From Candidatus Omnitrophota bacterium (GTDB taxonomy: Bacteria > Omnitrophota > Gorgyraeia > Gygaellales > Profunditerraquicolaceae): a stretch of 64,000 nucleotides of DNA. The translations under genes were made by a program, and so were the position numbers. Below the pieces are notes generated by a model. That model saw only the letters and a list, made by a program, of their open reading frames with translations. It searched no databases and was not told where the DNA came from. This document shows positions 8,039 through 63,167 of this stretch, piece after piece (within the stretch, counting starts at the first letter, position 1; every line of letters begins with the position of its first letter). Where the stretch lies: positions 65,614 to 129,613 of the forward strand of contig JAQUPI010000001.1 in the NCBI GenBank assembly GCA_028716705.1, in the 5' to 3' direction.

Positions 8039-9520
8039 ATGCTGCCTATTTTTGTGATTATACCGCTGGGATGCGCGTTCTTGATCCCTATCGCGTCTAA
8101 ATGGCGAAAAGGCTCCGCGCAGATTTTGGCGAATCTCGCCGGAGGGCTCCTCTTATTATTCTCGATCAAGAGCATTTTCTGGTTAAAAACAGGGATAAAA
8201 CTTTATTATCTCGGCGGGTGGAAACCGCCTTTCGGGATCGCCATGGCATTGGACGGGATGACCGTGCTCATGCTTATCGTAGTGAATTTGATCGGGTGTT
8301 TAGCCCTGGTATATTCGATAGATTACATAAAAAGGTATACTTCCCCCGCGCTTTATTACACTTTATTCTCTTTGCTGTTAGCCGGTTTAAACGGGGTAGT
8401 GGTCAGCGCGGATCTGTTCAACCTTTTCGTATTCCTTGAAATTACCTCTATCGCGAGCTACGCCCTGGTCGCTTTCGGAACAGAGGCGGAGGAATTGGAG
8501 GCTTCTTTCAAGTACCTGGTTTTAGGGAGCGTGGCTTCGATTCTGATCTTGCTGGCTATCGGCATGCTCCTGGGCAGCGTATCCACTCTGAACATGGCGG
8601 ATATCAGCCGTTCCCTGGCCGCTTCTTCATCCTCATCAAAAGATATCATACTCTATTGCACGGCATTATTTATTATGGGTTTCGGATTAAAGACGGCCCT
8701 GGTGCCTTTCCACGCCTGGCTCCCCGACGCCCATCCCGCGGCTCCGGCGCCGATGTCAGCCATGCTTTCAGGCGTGGTGATAAAGACGATCGGCGTATAT
8801 GCCCTTTGCAGGGTGGTCTTTAATATACTCGGCTTTACTCAGATGATTTCCTCCATATTCATATGGCTGGGCATAATCTCGATGCTGGTAGGCGTGCTGT
8901 TGGCCATAGGGCAGTGGGATTTTAAAAGATTGCTCGCTTACCATTCGATCAGCCAGATCGGTTATGTCATATTCGGCATAGGATTAGGGACTCCGTTAGG
9001 GATAATGGGGGGGCTGTTCCATCTCTTTAACCATTCTTTGTTCAAATCCCTTTTGTTCTTAAACGCCGGTTCCGTAGAATACTCGACGGGCACAAGGCAG
9101 TTGGAAAAATTAGGCGGGCTTTCGAAACAGATGCCTGTAACCAGCGCTACTTCATTGATCGCGTCTTTGTCGATCGCGGGCATACCTCCTTTTTGCGGAT
9201 TCTGGAGCAAGCTGGTCATTATTATCGCCGCGTTCCAGGCGAATAATATCGCCGGAGGCGTTGTCTGCGTCCTGGTGGGCATAATCACATTGGCTTCTTT
9301 TTTGAAGATCCAGAAGTATGTTTTTATCCGTAAAGTGGAAGAGGCGATGGCCGGAGTGAAGGAAGCGCCTTTATACATGCTTTTTTCTATGGCGGTATTA
9401 GCGGTTTTGTGCGTTGCCGCCGGTTTATTATTTCTGCCCTTTATGGATACGATCATAAAACCCGCGTCCGACGCCTTACTGGAAGGCTTGAATTACGCGG
9501 GGCTTATTTTGGGAACCTGA
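8039..9520 (+). CDS. MrpD/NuoN-like antiporter subunit
   Basis: 493 aa. Canonical FHAWLPDAHPAAPAPMSAMLSGVVIKTIGVYA motif. Confidence 0.85.
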   Translation: MLPIFVIIPLGCAFLIPIASKWRKGSAQILANLAGGLLLLFSIKSIFWLKTGIKLYYLGGWKPPFGIAMALDGMTVLMLIVVNLIGCLALVYSIDYIKRYTSPALYYTLFSLLLAGLNGVVVSADLFNLFVFLEITSIASYALVAFGTEAEELEASFKYLVLGSVASILILLAIGMLLGSVSTLNMADISRSLAASSSSSKDIILYCTALFIMGFGLKTALVPFHAWLPDAHPAAPAPMSAMLSGVVIKTIGVYALCRVVFNILGFTQMISSIFIWLGIISMLVGVLLAIGQWDFKRLLAYHSISQIGYVIFGIGLGTPLGIMGGLFHLFNHSLFKSLLFLNAGSVEYSTGTRQLEKLGGLSKQMPVTSATSLIASLSIAGIPPFCGFWSKLVIIIAAFQANNIAGGVVCVLVGIITLASFLKIQKYVFIRKVEEAMAGVKEAPLYMLFSMAVLAVLCVAAGLLFLPFMDTIIKPASDALLEGLNYAGLILGT

Positions 9521-25116: not shown

Positions 25117-25908
25117 ATGGAGCATCTTTTTAAGGATTGGGAGGGCAGAAAAAAAGAATTCTCAGGGAAGACCCTGGCCTTTTTCTTTGATTTCGACGGT
25201 ACGCTTACGCCTATTGTAAGAAACCCGGGAAAGGCAGCCTTGCCTTTAGGAGTCAGAGGGCTGTTAAGAAAAATATCGGTAAACGGCAGGCACAGGCTGG
25301 CCATTGTAAGCGGCAGGGCGCTGGCGGACATTAAGAAAAAGATAAGCATCAGCGGTATAACCTACGTTGGCAATTACGGCCTGGAAATAGACGGGCCGAA
25401 GATAAGTTTCAGCAGCCCCGTTTCCCCCGGTTATAAAAAGGCGCTCAAATGCATAAAGAACTATATCAGCGATAGGATCGCCGTTATCAACGGCGCGCTG
25501 TTGGAGGATAAGGGTTTATCGTTGAGCCTTCATTACCGCCTTGCGCAGAGGAGTCAGATACCCAAAATAAAGAGCATTTTGCTTGAAGCGCTGACAATGT
25601 ATTCGGCCACGGATAAGATAAAAATAAATCTTGGGAAGAAGGTCTTTGAGATCCGTCCGGCCGGAGAATGGGGGAAGGGTAAGGTCGTGTTATGGCTTTT
25701 GGCGAGATGGCGGTTTAATAATAAGGACAAGGAAGTACTGCCTATTTATGCCGGAGACGATACAAGCGATGAAGAAGCCTTTAAGGCCCTGCGGAATGAG
25801 GGTATTACCATATTTGTGGGAGAAGCAAAGAAATCCTGCGCCCGCTATTATCTTAAAGATACAAGGGAAGTAAAAAATTTCTTGAAAGAAATTTCTAACC
25901 TGCGATAA
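25117..25908 (+). CDS. otsB: Trehalose-6-phosphate phosphatase (HAD superfamily)
   Basis: FFFDFDGTLTP (DxDGT motif I) and …GDDTSDEEAF (motif IV). Adjacent to otsA. Confidence 0.75.
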   Translation: MEHLFKDWEGRKKEFSGKTLAFFFDFDGTLTPIVRNPGKAALPLGVRGLLRKISVNGRHRLAIVSGRALADIKKKISISGITYVGNYGLEIDGPKISFSSPVSPGYKKALKCIKNYISDRIAVINGALLEDKGLSLSLHYRLAQRSQIPKIKSILLEALTMYSATDKIKINLGKKVFEIRPAGEWGKGKVVLWLLARWRFNNKDKEVLPIYAGDDTSDEEAFKALRNEGITIFVGEAKKSCARYYLKDTREVKNFLKEISNLR

Positions 25909-28660: not shown

Positions 28661-29914
28661 ATGTCCAAGTTTACCGGCGTATTAAGGAATCGTAACTTTT
28701 TCTTCTTGTGGCTTGGCCAGATAATCTCGCAGATGGGCGACAGGCTGGGGCAGATGGCTTTAATAGGGTTTGTCTACCTTAAAGCGCCAGGTTCCAGCTT
28801 CGAGATCGCCAAGGTCCTCTCGTTCACCATCATACCGGTATTTTTGATCGGCCCCCTTGCGGGGGTATATGTGGACAGATGGGACAGGCGGCGGACAATG
28901 TATGCCTGCGATCTCTTAAGGGCGGCCCTGGTTTCGATCATCCCGCTATTCTTATTCTATACCAAAAATATGACCCCCATATACTTGATAATCTTTGTGG
29001 TATTTTGCCTTGGCCGGTTTTTTGTTCCGGCGAAATTATCCATTATCCCGGACCTAGTGGAAAAAAAAGACCTGCTTATCGCTAACTCCCTGGTGAATAT
29101 TACCGGTATGATCGCCGCGATCATCGGTTTCGGCATAAGCGGCGTACTGGTGGAATGGATCGGGCCAAAAAGCGGATTTTACCTGAATGCCCTGACTTTT
29201 CTGGTTTCCGCCCTTTTTATTTTCCTTATCGCCAAGGGAAACGGGCACTTTATGGATTTCAAAAAGGTGGGCCAGGAAATCGTGGAGGTGATCAAAAAAT
29301 CGCTGTTTCAGGAGATTAAGGAAGGTATTTTATATTTTATTAAGAATAAGGATATCCGTTTTACCGCGGGAGTTACTTTTATTCTTTGGTCCGCCCTGGG
29401 TTCGATATACGTGGTGCTCATAGTATTCGTTCAGAATACGCTGCATTCGGCCACGAAAGACCTTGGCCTTTTGGTGATGTTCCTGGGTACGGGGCTGTTC
29501 CTTGGTTCTTTGGTTTACGGCAGGTTCGGCCAGCGTTTATCCCATTATAAGACCATATTCGCTTCTTTGATTTTAAGCGGCATGATGCTCATCGTTTTTG
29601 CCCTGGCCATAAGGCGTTATCCTTACTTTCCGATCGCGGCGGCGCTGTCGCTTTTACTGGGGTTTGTGATTTCGCCTATTATGATCGCCTCGAATACAAT
29701 TATCCACAATGTCAGCGATAGCGAAATGAGAGGGAAGATCTTCAGCTCAATGGAGATCGTTATGCACCTGGGCTTTTTGCTATTCATGTTCATCAGCGGG
29801 CTGCTCGCGGAGAGGTTATCGCATACGTTGATCTTGGTCATTGTGGGATGTGTTTTTGGTGTACTGGGCTTGATAAATTTGATCAGCAACCGTAAGATAC
29901 CGTGGTTAAATTAA
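28661..29914 (+). CDS. MFS transporter
   Basis: 417 aa, 12-TM pattern, MFS-like N-terminal motif region. Confidence 0.7.
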   Translation: MSKFTGVLRNRNFFFLWLGQIISQMGDRLGQMALIGFVYLKAPGSSFEIAKVLSFTIIPVFLIGPLAGVYVDRWDRRRTMYACDLLRAALVSIIPLFLFYTKNMTPIYLIIFVVFCLGRFFVPAKLSIIPDLVEKKDLLIANSLVNITGMIAAIIGFGISGVLVEWIGPKSGFYLNALTFLVSALFIFLIAKGNGHFMDFKKVGQEIVEVIKKSLFQEIKEGILYFIKNKDIRFTAGVTFILWSALGSIYVVLIVFVQNTLHSATKDLGLLVMFLGTGLFLGSLVYGRFGQRLSHYKTIFASLILSGMMLIVFALAIRRYPYFPIAAALSLLLGFVISPIMIASNTIIHNVSDSEMRGKIFSSMEIVMHLGFLLFMFISGLLAERLSHTLILVIVGCVFGVLGLINLISNRKIPWLN

Positions 29915-31221
29915 GAGAACACAAAAAAGAAACTGAAAATAAGGCCATAGAGAAGCTTGCAGCGCCCGCTAAGGTGTATATCCCGTTAAGCCAGCATATA
30001 GGCAAGCCCTGTGAACCTCTTGTCAAAGCGGGGGATTATGTTCATCTCGGGCAAAAGATCGCGGCCGCGCAAGCCAATGTCTATTCCCCTATTCATTCCT
30101 CGGTATCCGGCAAAGTCGCGGGGATACAGGATTGGCCTCATCCGGTTTTGGGCCGCTGCAGGGCAATAGTGATCGAAAACGATGGTTTGGACAAATTACC
30201 CGGCTCCCAGGCATGCCGGCCATCGGAAGAAATAAATAGTTTGGGCCCCGATAAAGTCCGCGACGCTGTATTAGAAGCCGGCATAGTGGGGATGGGCGGG
30301 GCGAGCTTTCCGTCGCATATAAAACTCAACCCTCCTAAGCCTGTCGATACCTTGATCGTTAACGGCGCGGAATGCGAACCATATTTGACCGGCGATTACC
30401 GCCTGATGGTAGAAAGAACAGAGGAGATCTTAAAAGGGATCGAGCTTATCGCGAAGTGTTTGGGTGTTAAAAATGTAATCATAGGGATTGAAGACAACAA
30501 GCCGGAAGCAATAGAAATCTTTAGTCGCAAGTCGCAAGTCACTGGCCCGATGGCCATGGTTTGTTTTCCGACGGGCAAAGCCGCAAGTTACAAGATAAAG
30601 GTTTTAAAGTCCCAATATCCGCAGGGAGGGGAAAAGCAGCTCATTTTGAATGTGCTGGGAAAAGAAGTCCCTTCCGGAAAACTCCCCTTTGAGATAGGGG
30701 TGGTCGTGCATAATGTCTCAACCGTATTCGCCATATACGAAGCGGTGTACTGCGGCAAGCCTTTATATGAACGGGTGGTGACGGTGGCCGGCAGCTGCGT
30801 ATCCAATCCCGGGAACTTTTTGGCGCGTATAGGAACGCCCTTCAAAGATTTGATCGATCCCCGCGGATTAAAAGAGGAGCCGGCTAAGATAATCGTAGGC
30901 GGGCCGATGATGGGGATCGCTCAATTCGACGATAAAACGCCGGTGATCAAGTCCACAACGGGTATATTGTTATACAGCAAAAAAGAGGCCCTGCTTAACG
31001 AGGAGCTGGCCTGTATCCGCTGCGGCGCCTGCGTCAGGGAGTGCCCGGCGTTCCTTATGCCTACTCTTATCAGCCTGGCTTCCAAAAAAGGCCTCTGGCC
31101 GCAGGCTAAAGTTTACGGCGCTTCTGACTGTATTGAATGCGGGATATGCAGTTACGTGTGCCCCTCAAACATCAGGCTGGTTCAGCACATAAAGAGGGCG
31201 AAGCTGGAGGTGGCGAGATGA
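29902..31221 (+). CDS. rnfC: Rnf electron transport complex subunit C
   Basis: …GMGGASFPSHIKL… NADH/FMN-site motif, two C-terminal 4Fe-4S motifs (CIRCGACVRECP, CIECGICSYVCP), NqrA-like N-terminus. Confidence 0.85.
   Translation: MVKLREHKKETENKAIEKLAAPAKVYIPLSQHIGKPCEPLVKAGDYVHLGQKIAAAQANVYSPIHSSVSGKVAGIQDWPHPVLGRCRAIVIENDGLDKLPGSQACRPSEEINSLGPDKVRDAVLEAGIVGMGGASFPSHIKLNPPKPVDTLIVNGAECEPYLTGDYRLMVERTEEILKGIELIAKCLGVKNVIIGIEDNKPEAIEIFSRKSQVTGPMAMVCFPTGKAASYKIKVLKSQYPQGGEKQLILNVLGKEVPSGKLPFEIGVVVHNVSTVFAIYEAVYCGKPLYERVVTVAGSCVSNPGNFLARIGTPFKDLIDPRGLKEEPAKIIVGGPMMGIAQFDDKTPVIKSTTGILLYSKKEALLNEELACIRCGACVRECPAFLMPTLISLASKKGLWPQAKVYGASDCIECGICSYVCPSNIRLVQHIKRAKLEVAR
30524..30543 (+). repeat. Heptanucleotide tandem repeat (GTCGCAA)2-GTCAC inside rnfC, in frame (encodes SRKSQVTG)
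   Basis: agtcgcaagtcgcaagtcact read directly. The same motif family occurs in purD at 51630-51664. Confidence 0.6.
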
Positions 31222-31742
31222 AAGAAACCCTGCGTTATGGCTTTATCCTTGGAACTATCTGTATCGTCGCGGGCGGCCTTTTGGCAGGGATAAATTTCCT
31301 GACAAAACCCCGGATTATCGCCCAGGCGCAGGCAGAAGAGGAGAGCGCCTTGAAAGAAGTCATGCCCGAGGGCGAAAGTTTTGAGCCGGCGAAAAAAGAG
31401 AACGGGGTTATTTACTATAGGGTGCGCGATAAAGAGGGCAAGTATATTGGAGCCGCCTTCAAGGCTTCCGGAAAGGGGTATTCCAGCGCAGTGGATACGC
31501 TTGCCGGGATGTCCCCGGACGGCCAGATAATAGCGGTTAAAGTGTTAAGCCAGAACGAAACTCCGGGCCTGGGAGCGAATGTAGTCGAGCCTCCTTTTAC
31601 CGGGCAGTTCGCGGGCAAGAACATACAAGACCTGGAAGGTGTTCAGGCGATTACCGGCGCGACTATTTCTTCAAAGGCGGTTATAGATTCAGTCCGTGAA
31701 AAGGGGAAAGAAATTTTTGAGTTGATAAAAGATGAAAAATAA
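31218..31742 (+). CDS. rnfG: Rnf complex subunit G (FMN-binding)
   Basis: ATGA overlap with the rnfC stop. N-terminal TM. …ETPGLGAN… and …AITGATISSKAV… FMN-binding motif. Confidence 0.8.
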   Translation: MKETLRYGFILGTICIVAGGLLAGINFLTKPRIIAQAQAEEESALKEVMPEGESFEPAKKENGVIYYRVRDKEGKYIGAAFKASGKGYSSAVDTLAGMSPDGQIIAVKVLSQNETPGLGANVVEPPFTGQFAGKNIQDLEGVQAITGATISSKAVIDSVREKGKEIFELIKDEK

Positions 31743-32691
31743 GCTGACCGTAAATATATCCCCGCATCTGCATAATAACGAATCGGTAAGCAAGATCATG
31801 TGGATAGTGGGCATAAGCCTGATCCCTGCCGGCGCCGCCGGAGTCATTATTTTCGGATTAAACGCCCTGACCGTTATGATCCTGGGGATCTTGTCGGCAT
31901 TGGTTACGGAATGGCTTATGCAGTTGTTGGCTAAAAGAAGGATCACTATATTGGATGGAAGCGCGTTCCTTACCGGCCTTTTACTGGCTTATAATCTGCC
32001 TCCGGGGGTTCCCTTATGGCTTCCGGCGGCGGGTTCTTTCTTCGCCATCGCCATAGGTAAGCAAGTATTCGGCGGGTTGGGTCAAAATATATTTAATCCG
32101 GCGCTGGTGGGCAGGGTGTTCCTTATGGCCTCCTGGCCAAAATATATGACCACTTTTACTAAGCCCTTAAATTTCGACGCCGTAACCTCCGCTACCCCGC
32201 TTGCCGTTTTAAGGGAATCGGGGGTAATAGAAAATATCTCTTATCTGGACCTATTTCTTGGCAGAAGAGGGGGCTGCATCGGGGAAGTGTGCATATTGGC
32301 GCTGGTCGCGGGGGCTTTGTTTCTTTTCTGGAAGGGTTATATTTCGTGGCACATACCCGTAACTTATACCGCTGTGTTCGCGGCATTTGTCTATGCATTC
32401 GGCGGGGACGGCTTGTTCCGGGGGGATTGGTTCTTTCATATTCTAACCGGCGGGCTTATCCTCGGAGCTTTCTTTATGGCTACTGATTACGTTACCTCTC
32501 CGCTTACCAGGAAAGGGCAGGTCATTTTTGGCGCCGGATGCGGGATACTCACCGCGGTGATACGGCTTTGGGGCGGATATCCCGAAGGAGTATCTTACGC
32601 GATACTGATGATGAACGCGGCTACGCCGATAATCGACCGGTTTACCAGGAACAGGATCTACGGGACCATGATCCCGGTAAATAGAAAATAA
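31732..32691 (+). CDS. rnfD: Rnf complex subunit D
   Basis: ISPHLH N-terminus, …SAFLTGLLLA…GGLGQNIFNPA…, C-terminal GGYPEGVSYAILMMN…PIIDRFTR. Compares closely to E. coli RsxD. Confidence 0.85.
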   Translation: MKNKLTVNISPHLHNNESVSKIMWIVGISLIPAGAAGVIIFGLNALTVMILGILSALVTEWLMQLLAKRRITILDGSAFLTGLLLAYNLPPGVPLWLPAAGSFFAIAIGKQVFGGLGQNIFNPALVGRVFLMASWPKYMTTFTKPLNFDAVTSATPLAVLRESGVIENISYLDLFLGRRGGCIGEVCILALVAGALFLFWKGYISWHIPVTYTAVFAAFVYAFGGDGLFRGDWFFHILTGGLILGAFFMATDYVTSPLTRKGQVIFGAGCGILTAVIRLWGGYPEGVSYAILMMNAATPIIDRFTRNRIYGTMIPVNRK

Positions 32692-33284
32692 TGAAAAAAT
32701 TATTCAGGGAGTTTTTTAAAGGCGTTATCAAAGAAAACCCGACATTTGTCCTTGCCCTGGGATTATGCCCGACGCTGGCAGTCTCCACGTCTGTAGTTAA
32801 CGCGGTAGGCATGGGCGCCGCCGCGACATTTGTCCTTATGGGTTCCAACGCGATGGTCGCCATGATCAAGAATAATATACCGGCTAAAATACGCATCCCG
32901 TGCTTTATCGTTGTCATAGCGACCTTTGTGACCATTGTCGAGATGGTTCTTAAAGCGTATACCCCGGGATTAAACCGCGCCTTAGGCATATACGTGCCTT
33001 TAATAGCGGTAAACTGTATTGTCCTGGGCCGGGCCGAGGCGTACGCCTCAAAGAATACGCTAATGAATTCTTTATTCGATGGCCTGGGCATGGGAGCGGG
33101 GTTTACCTTAGCCTTAACTTTAATTTCAAGTATAAGGGAATATTTTGGCTCGGGCAAGATATTCGGTTACGCGCTATCTCACAAATTCGAGCCGGTTTCT
33201 ATATTCGGCATGCCTTCGGGGGCGTTATTGGTCATCGGAATATTGCTCATATTATTTAATAGATTAAAGGGGAGAAAAAGTTGA
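32691..33284 (+). CDS. rnfE: Rnf complex subunit E
   Basis: …NPTFVLALGLCPTLAVSTSVVNAVGMGAA… is the RnfE/NqrD signature. Confidence 0.85.
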   Translation: MKKLFREFFKGVIKENPTFVLALGLCPTLAVSTSVVNAVGMGAAATFVLMGSNAMVAMIKNNIPAKIRIPCFIVVIATFVTIVEMVLKAYTPGLNRALGIYVPLIAVNCIVLGRAEAYASKNTLMNSLFDGLGMGAGFTLALTLISSIREYFGSGKIFGYALSHKFEPVSIFGMPSGALLVIGILLILFNRLKGRKS

Positions 33285-33889
33285 ACGCCGGCCAATTTTT
33301 GACCATTTTTATTTCATCGGTATTTATTTACAACGTGATCCTATCCCGTTTCCTGGGCCTCTGCCCTTTTATGGCAATATCAAAAGAAACAAAGCCGGCG
33401 CTGGCGATGAGCCTGGCCGTAACATTCGTGATCACCGCCTCTTCCATGATCACCTGGCTTATTTACAGGTTCCTGCTCCTTCCTTTTGGGCTCGCGTACC
33501 TGCGCACGGTGTCTTTTATCCTGGTAATCGCGGCCTTTGTCCAATTCGTGGAGTTGGTTATCCGTAAGGTAAGCCCGGCATTATTCAGGTTCTTTGGCAT
33601 ATACCTGACACTTATTACTACCAATTGCGCCGTATTAGGCGTTGCGGTACTGAACATAGACATGTTTTTCGCGGACGGCAGAGCGGTCGCGGGGAGCTTC
33701 TATTATTCAATATTCCAGGGAATCTGCACAGGCTTAGGGTTCAGCCTGGCGATGCTTCTTATGTCCGGGATCAGGGAAAGATTGGATTTGTGCGATGTGC
33801 CAAAGACAGTAAAAGAAATTCCGCTGGCATTTATCATCGCCTCTATCATGAGCCTCAGCTTCCTGGGTTTTAACGGTTTTAAGTTTTAA
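33281..33889 (+). CDS. rnfA: Rnf complex subunit A
   Basis: …NVILSRFLGLCPFMAIS… is the RnfA/NqrE signature. About 6 TM. Confidence 0.85.
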   Translation: MNAGQFLTIFISSVFIYNVILSRFLGLCPFMAISKETKPALAMSLAVTFVITASSMITWLIYRFLLLPFGLAYLRTVSFILVIAAFVQFVELVIRKVSPALFRFFGIYLTLITTNCAVLGVAVLNIDMFFADGRAVAGSFYYSIFQGICTGLGFSLAMLLMSGIRERLDLCDVPKTVKEIPLAFIIASIMSLSFLGFNGFKF

Positions 33890-33892
33890 TAT

Positions 33893-34690
33893 ATGGAGAT
33901 ACTCATACCGGTTTTGATTTTAGGTGTCCTGGGGTTTTTATTCGGCGTGGGATTGTCCATTGCCTCCAGGAAATTCGCCGTGAAAACCGACCACCGTTTG
34001 GAAACTATTGTCGGGCTTCTGCCCGGGGCGAACTGCGGGGCCTGCGGCGGCGCGGGGTGCTTTGGTTTCGCGGAGGCCATATTGAGCGGAAAAATGAGCG
34101 TGGATGCCTGCAAGGTCGCTGAAGAGAAGGTAAAAGAGAAGATAGCCGAAGTCCTGGGCGAGAAACTGGAAAAGAAAGTAAAATTGGTGGCGACCTTTCA
34201 CTGCGGAGGGGGAAATAAAGCCAAGGATAAATTTTTATACAAGGGTGAGGCGGATTGCGTGGAAGCGAATTTGCTCTTCGCGGGACAGAAATCGTGTTTT
34301 TACGGTTGCCTGGGGTTTGGTAATTGCGTAAAGGCCTGCCCCTTCGGCGCGATAAAGATGTCGGATGAAGGGATCCCGGTCGTGGACGAAGCCAAATGCA
34401 AGGGGTGCAATAAATGCGTTTTGATCTGCCCCAAGAAGTTATTCACCCTCAGGCCTGTAACTCATAAGATCCATGTTGCCTGCGCTTCCCATGACCTAGG
34501 CAGAGAAGCTGCCGCGGCGTGCCCGGCCGGTTGCATCGCCTGCCGTAAATGCGAACAGATTTGCCCGGCAGACGCGATAAAATTAATTAATAACTTAGCG
34601 GTCATCGATTATAAGAAATGCACATCCTGCGGGAAATGCGTGGAAGCATGCCCCAGAAAGTGCATAAAAAAGGTCTCCGATAAAGGATAG
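33893..34690 (+). CDS. rnfB: Rnf complex subunit B (polyferredoxin)
   Basis: N-terminal TM, CGACGGAGCFGFAEA Fe-S motif, then multiple CxxCxxCxxxCP ferredoxin motifs. Confidence 0.85.
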   Translation: MEILIPVLILGVLGFLFGVGLSIASRKFAVKTDHRLETIVGLLPGANCGACGGAGCFGFAEAILSGKMSVDACKVAEEKVKEKIAEVLGEKLEKKVKLVATFHCGGGNKAKDKFLYKGEADCVEANLLFAGQKSCFYGCLGFGNCVKACPFGAIKMSDEGIPVVDEAKCKGCNKCVLICPKKLFTLRPVTHKIHVACASHDLGREAAAACPAGCIACRKCEQICPADAIKLINNLAVIDYKKCTSCGKCVEACPRKCIKKVSDKG

Positions 34691-34694
34691 AAAA

Positions 34695-35297
34695 ATGACG
34701 AATATCGCTGTTTTTGCTTCAGGCCGGGGAACGAATCTCAGCGCGATCATAAAGGCGGTTAAAAAGGGGAAAATCCAGGCTAATCTGTCTTTACTCGTTT
34801 GCGATCAGCCGGGCGCCGGTGCGGTTGGCCGGGCAAAAAGGGCCGGCGTAAAGACCGCGCTGGTCAAAAGGCAGGATTTCCACGGGAAGAAAGAATTCGA
34901 AGATAAGATCATTGAGTATCTAGAAGAAAGCAAGATAGATTTGATCGTTATGGCCGGGTTCATGCGGATATTGAGCCCCGGTTTTGTCGAAAAGTATTCC
35001 GGCCGCATCCTGAACATACATCCGGCGCTTTTGCCGGCATTTAAAGGCTCTCACGCGATAAAAGACGCCTTCGAATACGGGGTAAAAGTTACCGGGGCCA
35101 CCGTGCATTTTGTGGATGAAAAGATGGACCACGGCCCTATAATCCTGCAGAAGGCAGTGGTTATCGAAGGAAACGACAGCCTTGGATCACTGGAAAATAA
35201 GATCCATAAGGCCGAGCACCGGCTTTACCCCGAAGCCATCAGGTTATTCTGCGAAGGAAAACTGAAGCTGGAGGGAAGAAGTGTGAAGGTTCTTTAA
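34695..35297 (+). CDS. purN: Phosphoribosylglycinamide formyltransferase
   Basis: MTNIAVFASGRGTNLSAII… and …ILNIHPALLPAFKG… (PurN active-site region). Confidence 0.85.
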   Translation: MTNIAVFASGRGTNLSAIIKAVKKGKIQANLSLLVCDQPGAGAVGRAKRAGVKTALVKRQDFHGKKEFEDKIIEYLEESKIDLIVMAGFMRILSPGFVEKYSGRILNIHPALLPAFKGSHAIKDAFEYGVKVTGATVHFVDEKMDHGPIILQKAVVIEGNDSLGSLENKIHKAEHRLYPEAIRLFCEGKLKLEGRSVKVL

Positions 35298-36169
35298 TAC
35301 GCGGGCAGGGGCCTGGAATATAGCGTCGCCTTGTCCAGGATCATTCTATCCCCCGTAAGCAGGTCATTTATCTCCACGCGCGAAAAATCCCGGAAATCAT
35401 AAGCCTTTACGCAGTAATTTACAATATTCAAGAATTCCTTCATGATGTCAAAGGGCTTCGCGGGTTCCAGGGATTTGGCGGAATACTCCAGGATAAAAGC
35501 CCCGTCATTGAATATGCCGTCAATTTTCTCGATCTTGAAATTATTCTTCAGCTCCTCCGCCTGAAGCTTTACGGTGAGCCTTTGGACCATCTGCTGGGTG
35601 AGGAAATCCGGCAGGGTAATGTTATAGAATTTCAGGTGCGATCCGGACGCATCCTTTATTGCCTGCGTATTTAAGCCGAATTTCATCACGTACCTTTTGT
35701 TGAGCTCCGTGGAAGGCATGTCCCCGCCATAAGACTTCTTTATATCCATTACATTTCCCATAATAATATAATCCAGCCCGATATTTATATCCGAAGACCA
35801 GAGCGCGAAGAATTCAGGCGCTTTATCCGCGCTCAGAAGGACCCGGCCGACGGTGGTAAGTATGTTCCGCAATTTATCGGTCATCTCCTCATCCAGTACC
35901 TTGCCTTCGGTGACCCCGTATTCTTTATGTAATATTTTTTGCAGAGGTATGTATATCCAAATGGTGGTATCGGTCATGCGGGCAAGCACATCGAGGCCAT
36001 ACTCCTCTTTACATATCTGTTTAACATGATAAGGGATATCTTCTCCCTTGAAGGTTGGTTCAAAGGATTCCTGGCAACCGGATAAAGTTAGGAGAAGGAG
36101 GAGGCTAAATAACGGCAGGGCGGCTTTTACCAAATTCTTTGAAAATAGCTTCGATCTCATCATAATCAA
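35294..36169 (-). CDS. Lipoprotein of unknown function
   Basis: Signal peptide with lipobox LSGC, 291 aa. 5' end overlaps the ftsH-like 3' end by ~65 nt. Confidence 0.5.
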   Translation of the reverse strand: MIMMRSKLFSKNLVKAALPLFSLLLLLTLSGCQESFEPTFKGEDIPYHVKQICKEEYGLDVLARMTDTTIWIYIPLQKILHKEYGVTEGKVLDEEMTDKLRNILTTVGRVLLSADKAPEFFALWSSDINIGLDYIIMGNVMDIKKSYGGDMPSTELNKRYVMKFGLNTQAIKDASGSHLKFYNITLPDFLTQQMVQRLTVKLQAEELKNNFKIEKIDGIFNDGAFILEYSAKSLEPAKPFDIMKEFLNIVNYCVKAYDFRDFSRVEINDLLTGDRMILDKATLYSRPLPAY

Positions 36170-37811
36170 GCTCTTCTTTCTTAAGCAGCTCTTCAGCGAA
36201 GCGGTCTAAAAGCGGGCTTTCTTTTTTTAGGAGGATTTCCACTTCCTTAAGGCAACCCTGCAGGATATCCTGTGTTTCCTGGTTCAGTTGTTCCTTTATC
36301 TTTTCGGACAAGAACGATACCTTTTCGCCGCGAAAGACCCCGTATTCCGAATGGGACGTTTCCAGGAGGGTGTAATCGCCGATAAGGCCGCTGTTCCCCA
36401 TGCCGAAACGCCAGACCATCTGGTGGGCGTACCACATTGCCTGATGGAAATCGGAAGCTACGCCTGTAGTAGTGGTGTTGAACTTCAATTTTTCAGCGAC
36501 ATAAGAACCAAGCGAAGATTTTATCTGGCCGAGCCATTCTTCCTTAGTATGCACATGCAGCTCTTCGCGCGGGTGCGGCACCACCATCCCTAAAGCTCCT
36601 CCGCGGGCGGTGATGGTAGCCTTGAATACGTCGTGAAAAGGCTGCAGGAAATATGTGGCAACGGCATGGCCCGCTTCGTGATAGGCGACTTTTTTCCTCT
36701 CACCCTCGTTAAAAATGACCTTGTGCTTTATGCCCATTTCCACCCTGTCCATCGCTTCCGTAATTTCCTTAAGGCCGATCCTTTCCTTTTTATTACGTAC
36801 CGCTATCAGGGCCGCTTCGCGCACGAGATTGGAGATATCGGCCGGGCTTTTGCGCACTGCCATGCGCGCCAGGCGCGGCAAATCCAATGAGGCGTCGTAT
36901 TTTACGTCTTTCAGATAATAAGCGAATAATTTTTCCCTTTCCTCCAGATTCGGCAAGTCAACGTAGATCTTACGGTCAAACCTGCCCGGCCTTAATAGGG
37001 CCTGGTCGAGGAAGGTTTCCGGCGCGTTCGTGGCGCCGATCAGGACAACATTATAGTCCTTTTCTTTAAGCCCGTCCATTTCCACGAGCAGCTGGTTCAA
37101 AGTGGTGTTGGATTCTGTCTGCCCGCCGAAGCCCCTGTCCGCGGCGCGCTGGGCGCCTACGGCGTCCAGCTCATCTATGAAGATGATGCATCCGCCTTCG
37201 ACATAAGCCAGCTGCCTTGCCTGTTTGAAAAGTTTACGGATGCGGCTGGCGCCGACACCGACGAACATTTCTATGAATTCTGACCCCGACATGGACAAGA
37301 AAGGCATATTCGCTTCGGTAGCTATCGCCTTTGCCAGGTAAGTCTTTCCGCAGCCGGGAGGGCCGATCATCAGTATACCCCTTAAGATCTTTCCCCCGAT
37401 AAGCTGCAGCTGGGCGCGGTCAACGACCAGGCGGACCACCTCCATCGCTTCCTGTTTTCCTTCTTCCATGCCGATGACGTCAGACCAGTGGATGCTGATC
37501 TCTTTGCCTTCTACCGCCTTTTTATGCAGGTGGGTGAATTTCATATGCCCGCCGCGCATAAGCCATATCCAGAGCGCGCCGCTTAAAGGAAGGCTTATGA
37601 CGTGCAGGACCAGGAAGATATAAAAGAAGAGTCCGTACTGGGCGAGAGCGGCTTTTTTAAAGTAGGATTCCGAAGTGGTCCACGCGGTTATGGCGTTTCT
37701 CAGGAAGAATATAAAAGAGATACCCAGTATCGTGGCTAAAAGGGCGATAGTCAGGCCCAGCCAGTGGAACTGTAGGAAAAGCTTTATTTTCCGTGTATTT
37801 TTCTTATTCAT
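36105..37811 (-). CDS. ftsH: FtsH-family ATP-dependent zinc metalloprotease paralogue with short N-terminal membrane region
   Basis: Walker A GPPGCGKT, Walker B IIFIDELD, second region of homology [21 protein letters not shown], and M41 HEAGHAV zinc motif. Confidence 0.8.
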
Positions 37812-37877
37812 TCCAATAAAGATAACATACTTTTTTTACGGTGTCAACCTAATAACTCACCTTTTGGGCGTTTTCTG

Positions 37878-37905
37878 TTGACTTAAAATTTATTCGTGAT
37901 AAAAT
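37878..37905 (+). promoter_or_regulatory. Sigma70-like promoter upstream of eno
   Basis: TTGACT - 16 nt - TAAAAT. RBS GAGGAGG at 37935. Confidence 0.4.
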
Positions 37906-37944
37906 CTATTGGTTCAAATTCCAAATTTACATTGAGGAGGAATA

Positions 37945-39210
37945 ATGGCTAAGATAAAAAAAGTTTTGGCGCGCGAGATCCTGGATTCAAGGGGCAATCC
38001 CACGGTGGAAGTGGATATAGTTTTGGATTCGGGCATACTGGGAAGGGCGGCTGTCCCTTCGGGGGCCTCTACCGGAGAAAAGGAGGCCTTGGAATTAAGG
38101 GACGGCGACAAGAAGAGGTATTTAGGTAAGGGGGTTTTGAAGGCGGTAAATAACGTAAATACGCTTGTGGCCTCTAAGATCAAAGGAATGAACGCGGATT
38201 TCAGGAAGATAGATAAACTACTTATCGACCTGGATGGGACGCAATTCAAATCCAAGTTAGGCGCCAACGCCATCCTGGGAGTGTCCATGGCAGCCGCCAA
38301 GGCGGACGCTTTATCCAAAAAACAGGCTTTATATAAATATTTGGGTAAGGGTACCGCCGCTGTCCTGCCGGTCCCCTTGATGAACATTTTAAACGGAGGC
38401 CTGCATGCCGACAATAACCTGGATATACAGGAGTTCATGATTGTTCCGGCGGGCGCCCCCAGCTTTCGCGAGGCGCTCAGGGCCGCGGCGGAAGTATTCC
38501 ATAATCTGAAATCGATCCTGAAATCAAAAAAGCTTTCTACATCCGTCGGAGACGAGGGCGGGTTTGCCCCTAGTTTGAATTCAAACGAAGAAGCCCTGCG
38601 ATTGATACTGGAAGCGATCGAGAAGGCCGGGTATAAACCTGGAGGAGATGTTTTTCTGGCGTTAGACTGCGCGGCAAGTTCATTCTATAAGGACGGGTCT
38701 TACAGCTTCGAAAATTCACAAAAGAGCTCTTCCGACTTGATCGCCATATATGAAAAATGGCTGGATAAATATCCTCTTTTATCCATCGAAGACGGGCTTT
38801 CCGAGCATGACAGCGCGGGATGGATAGAGATGACCTCCCGCCTGGGTAAAAAATTGCAGCTGGTGGGAGACGACATATTCGTTACCAACCCCGCGATCTT
38901 TAAGGAAGGCATTAAGCATGGAATAGCCAATGCCATCCTGGTGAAGGTAAACCAGATAGGTTCCCTTTCTGAGACGCTGGAAGTCCTGGATATGGCCAAA
39001 AAGAATAAATATAAAGCGGTGATCTCCCATCGTTCAGGCGAGACCGAGGATACGACTATCGCGCATCTCGCGGTGGCCTCCGGCTGCGGCCAGATCAAGA
39101 CGGGTTCCGTATCGCGCACGGATAGGATCTGCAAATATAACGAACTTTTGAGGATTGAAGAGGAGCTTGGGGGTAAAGCGGTGTATGCCGGGCGCCTCAT
39201 GAAAAAATGA
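37945..39210 (+). CDS. eno: Enolase
   Basis: [24 protein letters not shown]…, SHRSGETED, and a full-length match to enolase. Confidence 0.95.
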
Positions 39211-39476
39211 TCCTGAAGAAGTTATTTTCGCTTTTCGGCGCCGCTGTTTTTCTGTTGATAATATTTTTGCCGGGATACACAAAACTGCAGGAATTGCGGG
39301 ATAAGAACCATGACCTGGAGAAGAAGATCAAGTATTTAAACGTGGAAAACGCCCTCCTGCAGCAGGAATTAAAACGTATAGAAAACGACCCCGTGTATCA
39401 GGAAAAGATCGCCAGGGAGAAGATGGGTGTCGTGCGTAAAGGCGAAGTGCCCATAAAGGTCATCCCTGAAAAATAA
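39207..39476 (+). CDS. ftsB: Septum formation initiator (FtsB/DivIC-like)
   Basis: 89 aa, N-terminal TM then a coiled coil (…[36 protein letters not shown]…). ATGA overlap with the eno stop. Confidence 0.6.
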
Positions 39477-39482
39477 TAATTA

Positions 39483-39511
39483 TTGCAACCCGGCGTTATT
39501 TGCGTTATATT
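39483..39511 (+). promoter_or_regulatory. Sigma70-like promoter for tRNA-Met
   Basis: TTGCAA - 17 nt - TATATT, 5 nt upstream of the tRNA 5' end. Confidence 0.45.
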
Positions 39512-39516
39512 GGATT

Positions 39517-39593
<77 letters not shown>

Positions 39594-45529: not shown

Positions 45530-46298
45530 AGTCTGCGTATTGAGGACGGCGGGGACCAACTGCGATAAAGAGACGGCATTCGCCTTTTCTGAAGCGGGCG
45601 CCTCCGCGGAATTAGCGCACATCAACAGTTTATTTGAGCCGCAAAAGAAACTGAGTGAGTACGATATCCTGGCGATCCCCGGAGGTTTCTCGTACGGGGA
45701 TGACGTTGCCGCGGGAAAGATCCTGGCAAACGAGCTAAGATACAAGTTAATAGGCGACATAAAAAAATTCATTCAGGATGGGAAATTGATCATCGGCATT
45801 TGCAACGGTTTCCAGGTATTGGTAAGGAGCGGCCTGTTGCCCGGCAGCCCTTCGTTGTCACAGGAAGCCAGCCTGATCATAAATGATTCGGGGAAGTTCG
45901 AGGACCGGTGGGTTCATCTTAAAAATCCCAAATCCCAAAAGAAATGTATTTGGACAAAAGGATTGCCGGGATTGATTTCGTTACCTATAGCGCATGGGGA
46001 AGGAAAATTCGTGGTAAAAGACAAGTTTGTCTTAGAGCGGATTGAGGAACAGGGGCAGATCGTTTTCCAATACTGCGACGAGGAAGGGAAAGCCGGGGAT
46101 TATCCCGTCAATCCAAACGGGTCAACCGGGGACATCGCCGGTATCTGCGACGAGACGGGCAGGATCTTTGGCCTTATGCCGCACCCCGAAAGGCATATAT
46201 CCGTTTTACAGCATCCCCGCTGGCCAAGATCAAAAAAACACGGGGATGGTTCAATGATATTCGCAAACGCCGTGAATTATTGCAGGAGGAATCTATGA
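45516..46298 (+). CDS. purQ: FGAM synthase I (glutamine amidotransferase subunit)
   Basis: MAKPKVCVLRTAGTNCDKE…, catalytic Cys in GICNGFQ, HPER motif. Confidence 0.85.
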   Translation: MAKPKVCVLRTAGTNCDKETAFAFSEAGASAELAHINSLFEPQKKLSEYDILAIPGGFSYGDDVAAGKILANELRYKLIGDIKKFIQDGKLIIGICNGFQVLVRSGLLPGSPSLSQEASLIINDSGKFEDRWVHLKNPKSQKKCIWTKGLPGLISLPIAHGEGKFVVKDKFVLERIEEQGQIVFQYCDEEGKAGDYPVNPNGSTGDIAGICDETGRIFGLMPHPERHISVLQHPRWPRSKKHGDGSMIFANAVNYCRRNL

Positions 46299-50513: not shown

Positions 50514-51827
50514 ATGAGAATATTAGTAGTTGGTTCAGGAGGCCGGGAGCACGCCTTAATTTGGAAGATCGCGCAGTCGAAATTAACGGAAAAGATCTTT
50601 TGCGCGCCGGGCAACGGCGGGATCTCTCAGCAGGCGGAATGCGTCGACATAAAGGCGGAAGATATCCCCGGATTGTTAGAGTTCGCGCGGAAAGAAAAGA
50701 TAGATCTGACCGTTGTCGGCCCTGAAGGGCCTCTGCGCGGCGGGATTGCGGACGCGTTTAACAATTACGGGTTAAGTATATTCGGACCGGATAAAAAGGC
50801 GGCTCAGTTAGAGGCGAGCAAGATCTTCGCCAAGGAACTTATGGCAAAATATGGAGTTCCTACCGCCGATTTCAAGGTTTTTGACAACGCGGACGCGGCA
50901 AAGCGGTATATCGAGAGCAAGGGCGCCCCTTGCGTGGTCAAGGCGGACGGTTTAGCGCAGGGCAAGGGTGTGATCGTCGCAAAAAATGTCGATGAAGCGA
51001 AAGCCGCGGTAACCTCGATAATGCAGGAAAAAGCCTTTGGAGAGGCGGGAAACAGGATTATAGTCGAGGAATGCCTGCGGGGCGAGGAGGCATCCATCAT
51101 CGTGCTTACAGATTCGCGGGAAGTCGTTCCATTGGCTTCGAGCCAGGACCACAAAAGGATCTTTGACGGCGACGAGGGCCCGAACACGGGAGGCATGGGA
51201 GCTTATTCTCCGGCCCCTGCCGTAACCGGAGCCGTATTTAAGGAGATATTGGAGAAGATCGTTTACCGGGCAATAGACGGCTTGAGCAAGGAAGGGATCA
51301 ACTATAAGGGCGCTCTATACGCCGGTGTTATGCTCACAAAGGAAGGCCCGAAGGCCCTGGAATTCAACGCCCGTTTCGGCGATCCGGAAACCCAGGCGAT
51401 AGTGCCGAGATACAAAACAGACTTGCTGGAGGCGATGCTCGCCGTAAGCGGCCAGAATTTGAGGAAAGTGGTGAAGGCGGGAGGCTTAAAATGGGATAGC
51501 CGCGCTTGCGTAAGCGTGGTGTGCGCCTCCGGAGGATACCCCGGAAAATATGAAAAAGGCAAAGAAATATCGGGGCTGGAGGAAGTAGCTAAGATGCAAG
51601 ATGTGGTGGTATTCCACGCCGGCACTAAGAAGTCACAAGTCACAGGTCACAGGTCACAAGTAAAATATTTGACCAGCGGCGGCAGGGTTTTAGGCGTAAC
51701 CGGATTGGGTAATACTATCGCCGCCGCGATCGAGACCGTATATCGGGCGGTAGAGAAGATCCATTTCGAGGGGATGCAATACAGAAGAGATATAGGGGCC
51801 AAAGCTTCAGGGGCACGCCCTTCCTGA
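50514..51827 (+). CDS. purD: Phosphoribosylamine--glycine ligase
   Basis: MRILVVGSGGREHALIWKIAQS… and ATP-grasp motifs. Contains an in-frame heptamer-repeat insertion near …VVFHAGTKKSQVTGHRSQVKYLTSGGRVLGV…. Confidence 0.9.
   Translation: MRILVVGSGGREHALIWKIAQSKLTEKIFCAPGNGGISQQAECVDIKAEDIPGLLEFARKEKIDLTVVGPEGPLRGGIADAFNNYGLSIFGPDKKAAQLEASKIFAKELMAKYGVPTADFKVFDNADAAKRYIESKGAPCVVKADGLAQGKGVIVAKNVDEAKAAVTSIMQEKAFGEAGNRIIVEECLRGEEASIIVLTDSREVVPLASSQDHKRIFDGDEGPNTGGMGAYSPAPAVTGAVFKEILEKIVYRAIDGLSKEGINYKGALYAGVMLTKEGPKALEFNARFGDPETQAIVPRYKTDLLEAMLAVSGQNLRKVVKAGGLKWDSRACVSVVCASGGYPGKYEKGKEISGLEEVAKMQDVVVFHAGTKKSQVTGHRSQVKYLTSGGRVLGVTGLGNTIAAAIETVYRAVEKIHFEGMQYRRDIGAKASGARPS
51630..51664 (+). repeat. 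Heptanucleotide tandem repeat (AAGTCAC)2(AGGTCAC)2-AAGTAAA inside purD, in frame
   Basis: aagtcacaagtcacaggtcacaggtcacaagtaaa read directly. Encodes KSQVTGHRSQVK, which lengthens the loop before the conserved GGRVL motif. Confidence 0.6.
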
Positions 51828-56058: not shown

Positions 56059-56475
56059 ATGGTGGAAATGGAATTGAATAAGATCGTCATAGATGAGAAG
56101 AGGCACGACCAGTTGATCGTCCTAAAGGAGAAAGGCGGCGAGAGGATCCTGCCTATCGTGATCGGGTTGAACGAGGCCTCCGCCATCAAGTTGAAAATAA
56201 GCGGGTTCCAGCCGCCGAGGCCGCTGACCCATGACCTTTTGCATACGACGATCGAGAACCTGCACGCGAGCATCGAGAAGATCATTATCGATAAGCTGGA
56301 AGAGAATACGTTCCACGCCAAGCTGGTCATCAAGACCGGATCAGGGGATATAAAGGTCATCGATGCCCGCCCTTCGGATAGCATCGCCCTGGCGGTAAGG
56401 GCCCGCGCGCCGATATTCGTGGAAGACGACGTAGTAAAACAGTCGGAAGTTTTTAACAAAAAACCGGTAGAATAA
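56059..56475 (+). CDS. Bifunctional nuclease family protein (DUF151)
   Basis: …LVIDEKRHDQLIVLKEKGGERILPIVIGLNEASAI… is a DUF151-like N-terminus. Confidence 0.6.
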   Translation: MVEMELNKIVIDEKRHDQLIVLKEKGGERILPIVIGLNEASAIKLKISGFQPPRPLTHDLLHTTIENLHASIEKIIIDKLEENTFHAKLVIKTGSGDIKVIDARPSDSIALAVRARAPIFVEDDVVKQSEVFNKKPVE

Positions 56476-63015: not shown

Positions 63016-63022
63016 ATTCTTA

Positions 63023-63111
63023 GTAACTAGTAAAATAGTAACGAGTAACTAGTAATTTTTTTCAGTTTTTAGCTCTGATTACCAGTTACTAGTTACTGGA
63101 TTACTAGTTAC
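63023..63111. repeat. Array of four copies of 11-mer GTAACTAGTAA (two direct, 30-nt gap, two inverted) in the helicase promoter region
   Basis: GTAACTAGTAA at 63023-33 and 63045-55. Its reverse complement TTACTAGTTAC at 63086-96 and 63101-11. Each copy has an ACTAGT palindromic core. Confidence 0.6.
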
Positions 63112-63167
63112 TTATTATATTCTAAAATTATTGATTTATCCACGCAAAAAGTGTAAAATAATGCTCA

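Follow-up and report, generated by a model that had tools for sequence, protein, structure and literature searches.

Why should two unrelated housekeeping genes of one bacterium carry the same short tandem DNA repeat in frame? The question is raised by a 64,000-nucleotide stretch of a Candidatus Omnitrophota genome (contig JAQUPI010000001.1, positions 65,614 to 129,613; hereafter the window), in which rnfC, encoding electron transport complex subunit C, and purD, encoding phosphoribosylamine-glycine ligase, each contain head-to-tail copies of closely similar heptanucleotides. A preliminary description of the sequence had read these repeats as a dispersed, genome-specific microsatellite that might drive length variation or mark a mobile or recombinogenic motif. 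Comparison with orthologs, designated below by the prefixes L (loci) and P (proteins), points to a broader answer. The two repeats are probably slippage-type arrays that arose at the DNA level, were filtered by reading frame and by the tolerance of protein loops, and then persisted as neutral passengers rather than as switches.

Both repeats are genuine tandem arrays, as first described. In rnfC, the units AGTCGCA (30523-30529), AGTCGCA (30530-30536) and AGTCACT (30537-30543) follow one another in frame and encode S208-R-K-S-Q-V-T-G215; the start originally given, 30524, lies one base inside the first unit. Tandem Repeats Finder (TRF) delimits 2.6 copies with a 100% match at 30523-30540, and in purD 4.6 copies of AAGTCAC with a 92% match at 51630-51661. 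A two-unit pattern allowing at most 3 mismatches has 7 matches in the window against 2.0 expected; none of 100 shuffles reached 7, and all seven matches fall within rnfC and purD. Exact period-7 runs (at least two copies plus 4 bases) occur twice against 0.04 expected, or about 50 times the shuffled level, and periods 4-6 and 8-12 gave no runs of equal stringency in the window. Outside the arrays, the window holds 27 matches to the single heptamer ARGTCRC against 20.2 expected, which is no enrichment. A dispersed single-copy motif was therefore rejected, and the signal lies in the tandem arrangement.

The nearest relatives of both proteins are found in metagenome-assembled genomes (MAGs) of Candidatus Omnitrophota, and PurD is identical to NCBI entries. 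The rnfC and purD repeat sequences recur identically in independent assemblies from ENA (contig L001), JGI (contig L082) and NCBI (MAGs). The repeats are therefore not assembly artefacts, a concern raised in the preliminary description.

The history of the rnfC repeat can be read from its orthologs. An alignment of 120 Omnitrophota RnfC proteins has a segment of variable length, bounded by IEDNKPEAI..F and ..VLKSQYPQGG, in which most sequences show a 7-residue period, exactly what a heptanucleotide array yields across three reading frames. The loop peptides of P0057 (SHKSQVTSHKLKVL), P0065 (NYELRITNYELRIL), P0037 (NAIRNTQYAIRVL) and P0079 (FRVQSSEFRVKVL) imply the units AAGTCAC, AATTACG, GCAATAC and TTCAGAG, respectively. 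At the DNA level, the equivalent loop carries (AATTACG)x5.6 in L002, (CACTACG)x4.4 in L004 and (CAATACG)x5.3 in L011. These three arrays share one register relative to a conserved downstream TTTTAAA(A/G)TC, and the proximal units of the window are in register with them and with L003. Judging from these alignments, most Omnitrophota RnfC proteins carry a heptamer array in this loop, with units that differ by lineage. On the same grounds, the window repeat is the remnant of such an orthologous array (register AGTNNCA), located in the helix-strand loop of the NuoF-like domain and present with lineage-specific units in much of the phylum.

In the window this array is split and decayed. A unique in-frame insertion of 42 nt divides the proximal units from a distal set of two to three degenerate units whose register matches that of the orthologs (Table 1). 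L003 resembles this arrangement, with AGGTCAC AAAGTCAC, then an insertion, then AAGTTAC AAGTTGA. The distal units of the window encode SYKIKVL, the conserved beta strand preceding KSQYPQGG, and retain a weak two-unit pattern match at 30578-30591. The idea of the rnfC copy as a fresh microsatellite must accordingly be abandoned: what had been noticed belongs to an old orthologous array and is its proximal part, now decayed and cut off by the insertion. The insertion was also considered as a repeated or mobile element, and this was rejected; blastn-short against the window and 164 loci found only the insertion itself and the identical ENA contig.

Structural comparison supports the surface-loop location proposed earlier. 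Window RnfC matches the solved chains 9eri_C and 7zc6_C with E-values of 1e-104 to 1e-109, and these chains leave a 13-residue gap at query residues 210-222, overlapping the insertion (residues 215-228). The AlphaFold2 (AF2) model of RnfC (mean predicted local distance difference test score, pLDDT, 78) places a helix at 201-211, coil with pLDDT below 50 at 213-228 and a strand at 228-235, so that the proximal units occupy the end of the helix and the start of the low-confidence coil. A second RnfC loop (residues ~95-110) shows 7/8-periodic peptides in most orthologs, with octamer arrays in L002 and L004; in the window protein its periodicity is lost.

Table 1. Host genes, arrays and associated features of the window.
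Feature	Position	Strand	Basis
rnfC (electron transport complex subunit C), first host gene	29902..31221	+	Pfam RnfC_N, Complex1_51K, SLBB, Fer4
rnfC loop-1 array, proximal part: AGTCGCA AGTCGCA AGTCACT, encoding SRKSQVT (residues 208-214)	30523..30543	+	sequence, TRF
Unique 42-nt in-frame insertion dividing the rnfC array, encoding GPMAMVCFPTGKAA (residues 215-228)	30544..30585	+	absent from P0057-type orthologs (SHKSQVTSHKLKVL)
rnfC array, distal degenerate units: AGTTACA AGATAAA GGTTTTA, encoding SYKIKVL	30586..30606	+	register matches L002, L003
purQ short array: (AAATCCC)x2.4, encoding KNPKSQ	45923..45939	+	TRF, DNA and translation, orthologous arrays
purD (phosphoribosylamine-glycine ligase), second host gene	50514..51827	+	Pfam GARS_N, GARS_A, GARS_C; PDB 2yw2, 3mjf
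purD intact heptamer array: AAGTCAC AAGTCAC AGGTCAC AGGTCAC AAGTAAA, encoding KSQVTGHRSQVK, +7 residues	51630..51664	+	sequence, TRF
Intergenic array (TAGTAAC)x4.9, left arm of inverted pair	63021..63055	.	TRF, sequence
Intergenic array (TTACTAG / AGTTACT)x4.7, right arm, reverse complement of left arm	63079..63112	.	TRF, sequence

In purD the array is intact, with about four copies; it belongs to the same unit family as that of rnfC and lengthens the tip of a beta-hairpin by seven residues. It appears as a 7-residue insertion relative both to solved PurD structures and to empty-site orthologs, which read KKENGKYFT, and the 92-position Pfam profile of GARS_C is stretched over 99 residues of the window protein. 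In the AF2 model (mean pLDDT 67), the array forms the hairpin tip between strands 364-375 and 383-399, with pLDDT below 50 at 376-380. Among 120 orthologous proteins, about 35 have a short loop such as FHAGTKKENGKYFT, and most others have 6-8 extra residues exactly there. The DNA of 80 metagenomic loci provides the underlying sequences. Arrays of about four copies occur in L084 ((AAGTCAC)x4.7, perfect), L085 ((GCTCCAC)x4), L087 ((CGCCCCT)x4) and L108 ((AGTTCGG)x4), L153 uses the unit ACCGCAG/ACCACAG, and octamer arrays are found in L095 (AAGTCACC), L098 (CAAGAACT) and L141 (AGCACAGG). Many of the 80 loci have an empty site and no other change.

PurD is also mosaic around this loop. Over the 40 residues that include the array, P0156 and P0140 share 97% identity, against 77% for the whole protein, and the arrays of P0156 and P0133 differ despite 93-97% identity elsewhere. 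From these sequences, loop alleles appear to have been exchanged between lineages by recombination. Because of this mosaicism, an independent origin of each PurD array, as suggested by protein clustering, was rejected as unreliable.

The arrays of rnfC and purD belong to a class found throughout related genomes. The Omnitrophota DNA sampled, 0.95 Mb in all, was collected by way of rnfC and purD, which makes the sample biased. Among its tandem arrays of at least 3.3 copies (TRF), period 7 accounts for 60 of 89 and period 8 for 11 of 89; periods 6 and 9 are free of frame constraint, yet rare. In a 1.17-Mb control from other phyla, period 7 is likewise foremost, at lower density. Per base, non-coding DNA holds about 7 times as many arrays of at least 3 copies; in absolute numbers most are coding, including those of rnfC and purD, through which the sample was gathered. 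On the coding strand, the arrays have more A and C and less G than their host genes. Heptamer arrays, some of them in genes, were also seen in Nitrospirota and Bacteroidota control loci, and a Nitrospinota rnfC (L021, 978-1011) carries (CTCAAAT)x4.9 in the loop that bears the Omnitrophota arrays.

Exact peptides of pure 7- or 8-nt arrays (7 or 8 residues) were detected in 56 of 120 RnfC and 29 of 120 PurD proteins and in no shuffled protein, and they are confined to RnfC residues 80-125 and 200-225 and PurD residues 360-385. Coding arrays recur at fixed sites of RnfC, PurD, PurL, PurQ, PurM, a MiaB-like protein, Tgt and a CCA-adding enzyme. By TRF, 8 coding 7-nt arrays have 3.x copies, 29 have 4.x and 2 have 5.x; the corresponding numbers for 8-nt arrays are 1, 8 and 0. 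This coding 4.x peak is one copy plus three units, a gain of 21 or 24 nt. At their ends, arrays pass through partial units into the neighboring native codons without a change of phase, and other small insertions cluster in the array-bearing loops.

Further repeats are present in the window itself. The short purQ array lies at a loop where PurQ orthologs bear 4-copy arrays with other units (L093, L094, L102, L105, L106 and L122). Its unit, AAATCCC, is also implied in RnfC loop 2 of several orthologs (DKSQIPNPKSQIE) and forms an 8.3-copy non-coding array in L108 (6780-6834). The two intergenic arrays, flanked by a divergent helicase gene on one side and a DUF3786 gene on the other, form an inverted pair that folds into a long hairpin (DNA folding free energy -20.9 kcal/mol, z = -6.95), and are unchanged in two independent Logan contigs (L162 and L163). 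In L093 (11290-11367) and L148 (4672-4744), comparable inverted pairs were noted directly 3' of the purD stop. In purL, the window sequence at 42690-42722, AAGTAACC[GAAACGCAGGGCCGCGGG]GTAACC, is an 18-nt GC-rich insert between GTAACC direct repeats, and L093 bears (AGTCAT/AGTCAC)x4.3 at the site equivalent to this hot spot. TRF also reported two longer-period tandem duplications, at 25279-25332 (period 27, 2.0 copies) and 56240-56279 (period 21, 1.9 copies), each with a 78% match.

The three-frame signature, the specificity of the period and the use of different units at one site together rule out selection on the peptide and indicate a process that acts on DNA in a register of 7-8 nt. The view that convergent protein evolution was not involved is thereby borne out. 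Orthologs that share the peptide are clearly not devoid of the nucleotide repeat, since their DNA bears arrays.

For the generating step, we infer reiterative slippage-type copying in a 7-8-nt register, which would write arrays during replication or repair. Within genes, an array would survive only if it adds a net three units (21 or 24 nt) and lies in a loop that tolerates 7 or 8 residues. Such a filter would explain why unrelated enzymes bear arrays at the same few loops, and why other small in-frame insertions gather there. Once fixed, arrays would, we infer, be neutral passengers that either stay homogeneous or are replaced, through concerted evolution and recombinational allele exchange. 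Some would decay, as in RnfC loop 2, in the distal rnfC units and in PurD loops of the KSLIANGKSHIV type. Others would be interrupted, as by the 42-nt insertion of the window or by a 21-nt palindrome in L005, L100 and L106, and one unit might sometimes spread among loci within a genome. In the rnfC of the window, the in-frame insertion has split the array and point mutation has degraded its distal units.

Several observations weigh against this account and are gathered here. First, stepwise slippage must cross frameshifted 2- and 3-copy intermediates in core genes. Second, arrays in stretches with no open frame of at least 70 aa also peak at four copies (13 at 4.x, 3 at 3.x and 2 at 5.x), and frame selection cannot account for a peak seen in such DNA. 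This criterion replaced an untranslatable set defined by stops in all six frames, which comprised 3 arrays only. Third, no copy-number variation was found among near-identical strains, in a small sample in which the members of each 90% cluster are of equal length. Three near-identical RnfC sequences all have 439 aa, the PurD cluster members have 437 aa, the 98%-identical strain L082 has an equal copy number, and three assemblies agree in the sequence of the intergenic arrays. These data therefore give no support to present-day slippage.

Fourth, several features fit copying between loci better than growth in place. Within a genome, units are shared between array sites more often than chance predicts: of the array pairs from different sites of one sampled locus, 7/32 have units that differ by at most one mismatch, against 4% for different-locus pairs (permutation p = 0.0005; 6/31, p = 0.001 without the window pair). 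In L106, an identical composite of ~56 nt is present in a miaB-like gene and in purM (~598-655 and 4686-4745), consisting of (GCTATCC)3, a 21-nt palindrome and then GCTATCC GCTATTAAA; its presence in two genes implies copying between loci. Fifth, the purD arrays of the window and L084 are identical at 32/35 positions, though the genes are only 69% identical (P = 0.0017). The five observations would also accommodate a writing step of three units.

These last observations are the strength of the main rival explanation, in which blocks of about three units, at times along with other small elements, are pasted from a donor array elsewhere in the genome as a copied cassette or templated insertion. 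Template switching could do this, as could ectopic gene conversion or a mobile element of tiny size. Under this explanation, AAGTCAC is common to rnfC and purD since one array seeded the other. It would also accommodate the four-copy preference in non-coding DNA, the sharing of a unit by the two RnfC loops in 3/17 proteins (p = 0.014), and L122, which is the clearest case of a genome-specific unit: the CGCAATA/CGCAATC family occurs there in purL (4149-4179), purQ (5457-5480) and purM (8293-8323). However, most arrays within one genome have unrelated units, and the in-phase partial units running into native codons are what in-place growth predicts. The arrays showed neither terminal repeats nor target duplications, nor was an enzyme found associated with them, and the sequence common to rnfC and purD in the window is the 7-nt unit only, without extension. 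Pasting from a donor is judged unlikely, although it is the competitor to be taken most seriously.

The earlier reading of the repeat as a dispersed, genome-specific microsatellite survives in part. The class is indeed dispersed and units are partly shared among loci, but there is no single motif, and most arrays of one genome differ; the window also uses AAATCCC and TAGTAAC. The suggestion of a mobile or recombinogenic motif finds signs in related genomes, in L106 and L122 only, and none in the window. As for length variation, lineages do differ by 7 or 8 residues, but near-identical strains do not, and nothing supports active slippage or phase variation. The preliminary description had treated absence of the repeat elsewhere, together with invariance across strains, as the pattern that would speak against it; invariance is seen in this small sample, whereas the repeat is present elsewhere.

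A separate repeated sequence was noted in divergent Omnitrophota genomes. A perfect 20-nt palindrome, CCTGCCTGCC followed by GGCAGGCAGG, occurs dispersed in L002 (10875-10894), L101 (3986-4005), L133 (8919-8938), L137 (6165-6184) and L143 (3558-3577), with variants in L005 (3206-3227), L106 (622-643 and 4710-4731) and L100 (1425-1445). It is found as a 21-nt in-frame insert, encoding CL(P)AGRQA, within heptamer arrays of rnfC, purM and the miaB-like gene. It looks like a very small mobile or repetitive extragenic palindrome (REP)-like element. No match with 3 or fewer mismatches is present in the window.

A second alternative is that the arrays are functional cis elements that serve as recognition sites for a protein or RNA, as hairpin terminators or as signals for the rate of translation, for example, and are maintained by selection at the nucleotide level. 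The strong hairpin of the inverted pair at 63021-63112, the position of such pairs directly after the purD stop in L093 and L148, the preferred copy number of about four and the conservation of the purD array beyond that of its gene would all be in keeping with a function, and other heptamer repeats have been suggested to act in regulation (PMC4679880, PMC4692102). However, units at one site are nearly all different between lineages, leaving no common recognition sequence, and many orthologs lack the array and are otherwise unchanged. The rnfC copy is broken and decayed, and its site has no significant RNA or DNA fold (z = -1.29). Array positions, moreover, track protein loops rather than gene ends. 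The combination of 21- or 24-nt gains, recurrent loops with lineage-specific units and filled beside empty alleles argues for a mutational origin with a period of 7-8 over a sequence-specific function, which we consider improbable.

Contingency loci of Haemophilus and Neisseria are phase-variable genes that carry simple sequence repeats (SSRs). In the same way, gain or loss of one unit, whose length is not a multiple of three, could switch rnfC or purD off and on. A 7-nt SSR within an open reading frame (ORF) is indeed the architecture of phase-variable genes (PMC2651432, PMC3315296), and this likeness is the case for phase variation here. The copy number of the Omnitrophota arrays, however, is low and stable; at 2.6 to 4.6 copies, the window arrays are far under typical switching tracts, and the rnfC array is interrupted and degenerate. 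Near-identical sequences are all of equal length and in frame, with no out-of-frame or mixed-frame alleles and no tract-length differences found among them. The hosts are housekeeping genes of central metabolism and energy conversion, not surface or restriction-modification genes, and RnfC and PurD are not niche-adaptive. A switching role is very improbable on this evidence.

Chance similarity or convergent loops under peptide selection, for which only the shortness of the rnfC tract (2.6 perfect copies) could be cited, is scarcely credible given the excess of period-7 runs, the orthologous DNA arrays and a three-frame signature absent from shuffled proteins.

The closest known class to the Omnitrophota arrays is the over-represented heptanucleotide SSRs of prokaryotes. 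According to PMC4679880 and PMC4692102, which summarize Mrazek 2007, and to PMC6344855, many prokaryotes carry more heptamer repeats than any other class of long-unit SSR, and polymerase-footprint slippage, tied to the length of DNA in the active site, has been proposed as their source. Tandem heptamer DNA repeats have no known function and no accepted explanation (Mori et al. 2019, PMC6344855). For G-rich heptamers of Xanthomonas and Nostoc, a four-unit preference and inverted pairs have been described, and Rehm et al. credit quadruplex formation (PMC4692102). The Omnitrophota arrays share with this class the leading role of period 7, a high intergenic density, about four units, inverted pairs and slippage as a proposed origin. 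Head-to-tail 7-nt copies in rnfC and purD (TRF) and an excess over chance are found in the window, and dominance of period 7 in the related DNA; the copy-number polymorphism expected among strains is not found, in a small sample. In contrast to the known class, a large share of the Omnitrophota arrays lies in conserved housekeeping genes, stays in frame through three-unit gains and uses the same loops in many lineages. Their units are not G-rich and vary from site to site, and octamers behave alike.

Other families are more distant. Mazel and colleagues reportedly described, in 1990, cyanobacterial STRR heptamer families with the units CCCCAAT, TTGGTCA and CAACAGT. PMC4692102 cites STRR as three heptanucleotides of Calothrix PCC 7601. 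STRR are likewise dispersed tandem heptamer arrays, with few unit families over many loci of one genome, but they are mainly intergenic. Unit sharing within an Omnitrophota genome is only partial, and the window units AGTCGCA / AAGTCAC, AAATCCC and TAGTAAC do not match the reported STRR1-3 units. The TAACTGA direct repeats of marine Beggiatoaceae occur in two to six copies, a few of them within ORFs at positions tolerated by the protein (PMC4679880). These are also genome-characteristic heptamer direct repeats, but with a single unit that contains stops in all forward frames, a location mostly upstream of genes and a proposed role in translation. The Omnitrophota arrays have many units, are stop-free on the coding strand and are internal to enzymes.

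Rickettsia palindromic elements (RPEs), which Ogata and colleagues are said to have described in 2000 as a single sequence family of 100-150 bp lying in frame in protein genes, offer a further parallel. They too are selfish or neutral repeat DNA tolerated in frame at fold-compatible surface positions of conserved genes. They are not tandem 7-nt arrays, however, and their nearer analog is the 20-21-nt palindrome CCTGCCTGCCGGCAGGCAGG of related Omnitrophota, absent from the window. When compared with RPE-like elements and miniature inverted-repeat transposable elements (MITEs), the window repeats show the in-frame insertion at surface positions (structure gaps; AF2 loop RnfC 213-228, PurD tip 376-380), without conserved sequence beyond the 7-nt unit, a second copy of the insertion or a palindrome in the window.

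One strain-level difference was noted. Contig L001 from ENA matches window positions 29098-39593 at 100% identity and departs from the window exactly at the 3' end of a tRNA-Met (window 39517-39593; L001 from 10496 onwards). Beyond the tRNA, L001 encodes a large serine recombinase, a gene that the window lacks; this stretch is probably an integrative element inserted at the tRNA in one strain.

Among the literature matches listed, none links Omnitrophota with heptanucleotide repeats. The abundance of in-frame arrays in conserved enzymes, the phylum-wide loop hot spots, the parallel octamers and the partial sharing of units are new here and undescribed in the literature examined. The rnfC feature itself is mostly explained: it is the coding-gene form of a known but unexplained prokaryotic heptamer excess. 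In practical terms, the array loops are experimentally useful insertion-tolerant sites in RnfC, PurD, PurL, PurQ and PurM, and recurrent indels of 7 or 8 residues may confuse alignments, phylogenies and ortholog length filters for Omnitrophota marker genes.

Inside conserved enzymes, reading frame and protein fold act as built-in controls on the heptamer class, and hundreds of natural before/after comparisons are available from which the generating step could be inferred. Coding arrays thus make the unexplained heptamer periodicity easier to study. A bolder proposal, offered tentatively and held to be rather doubtful, is that ordinary one-unit slippage did not produce the heptamer and octamer arrays. 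Instead, an active or strongly biased array-writing process would lay about four copies (a three-unit step of 21-24 nt) per event, favor certain units within a genome, be able to copy them between loci and continually remodel the same surface loops of core enzymes in Omnitrophota, and to a lesser extent in Nitrospinota and others. If this were true, the mechanism that underlies the unexplained 'prime-number' periodicity of heptamers in prokaryotes could be approached directly through the empty and filled coding alleles.

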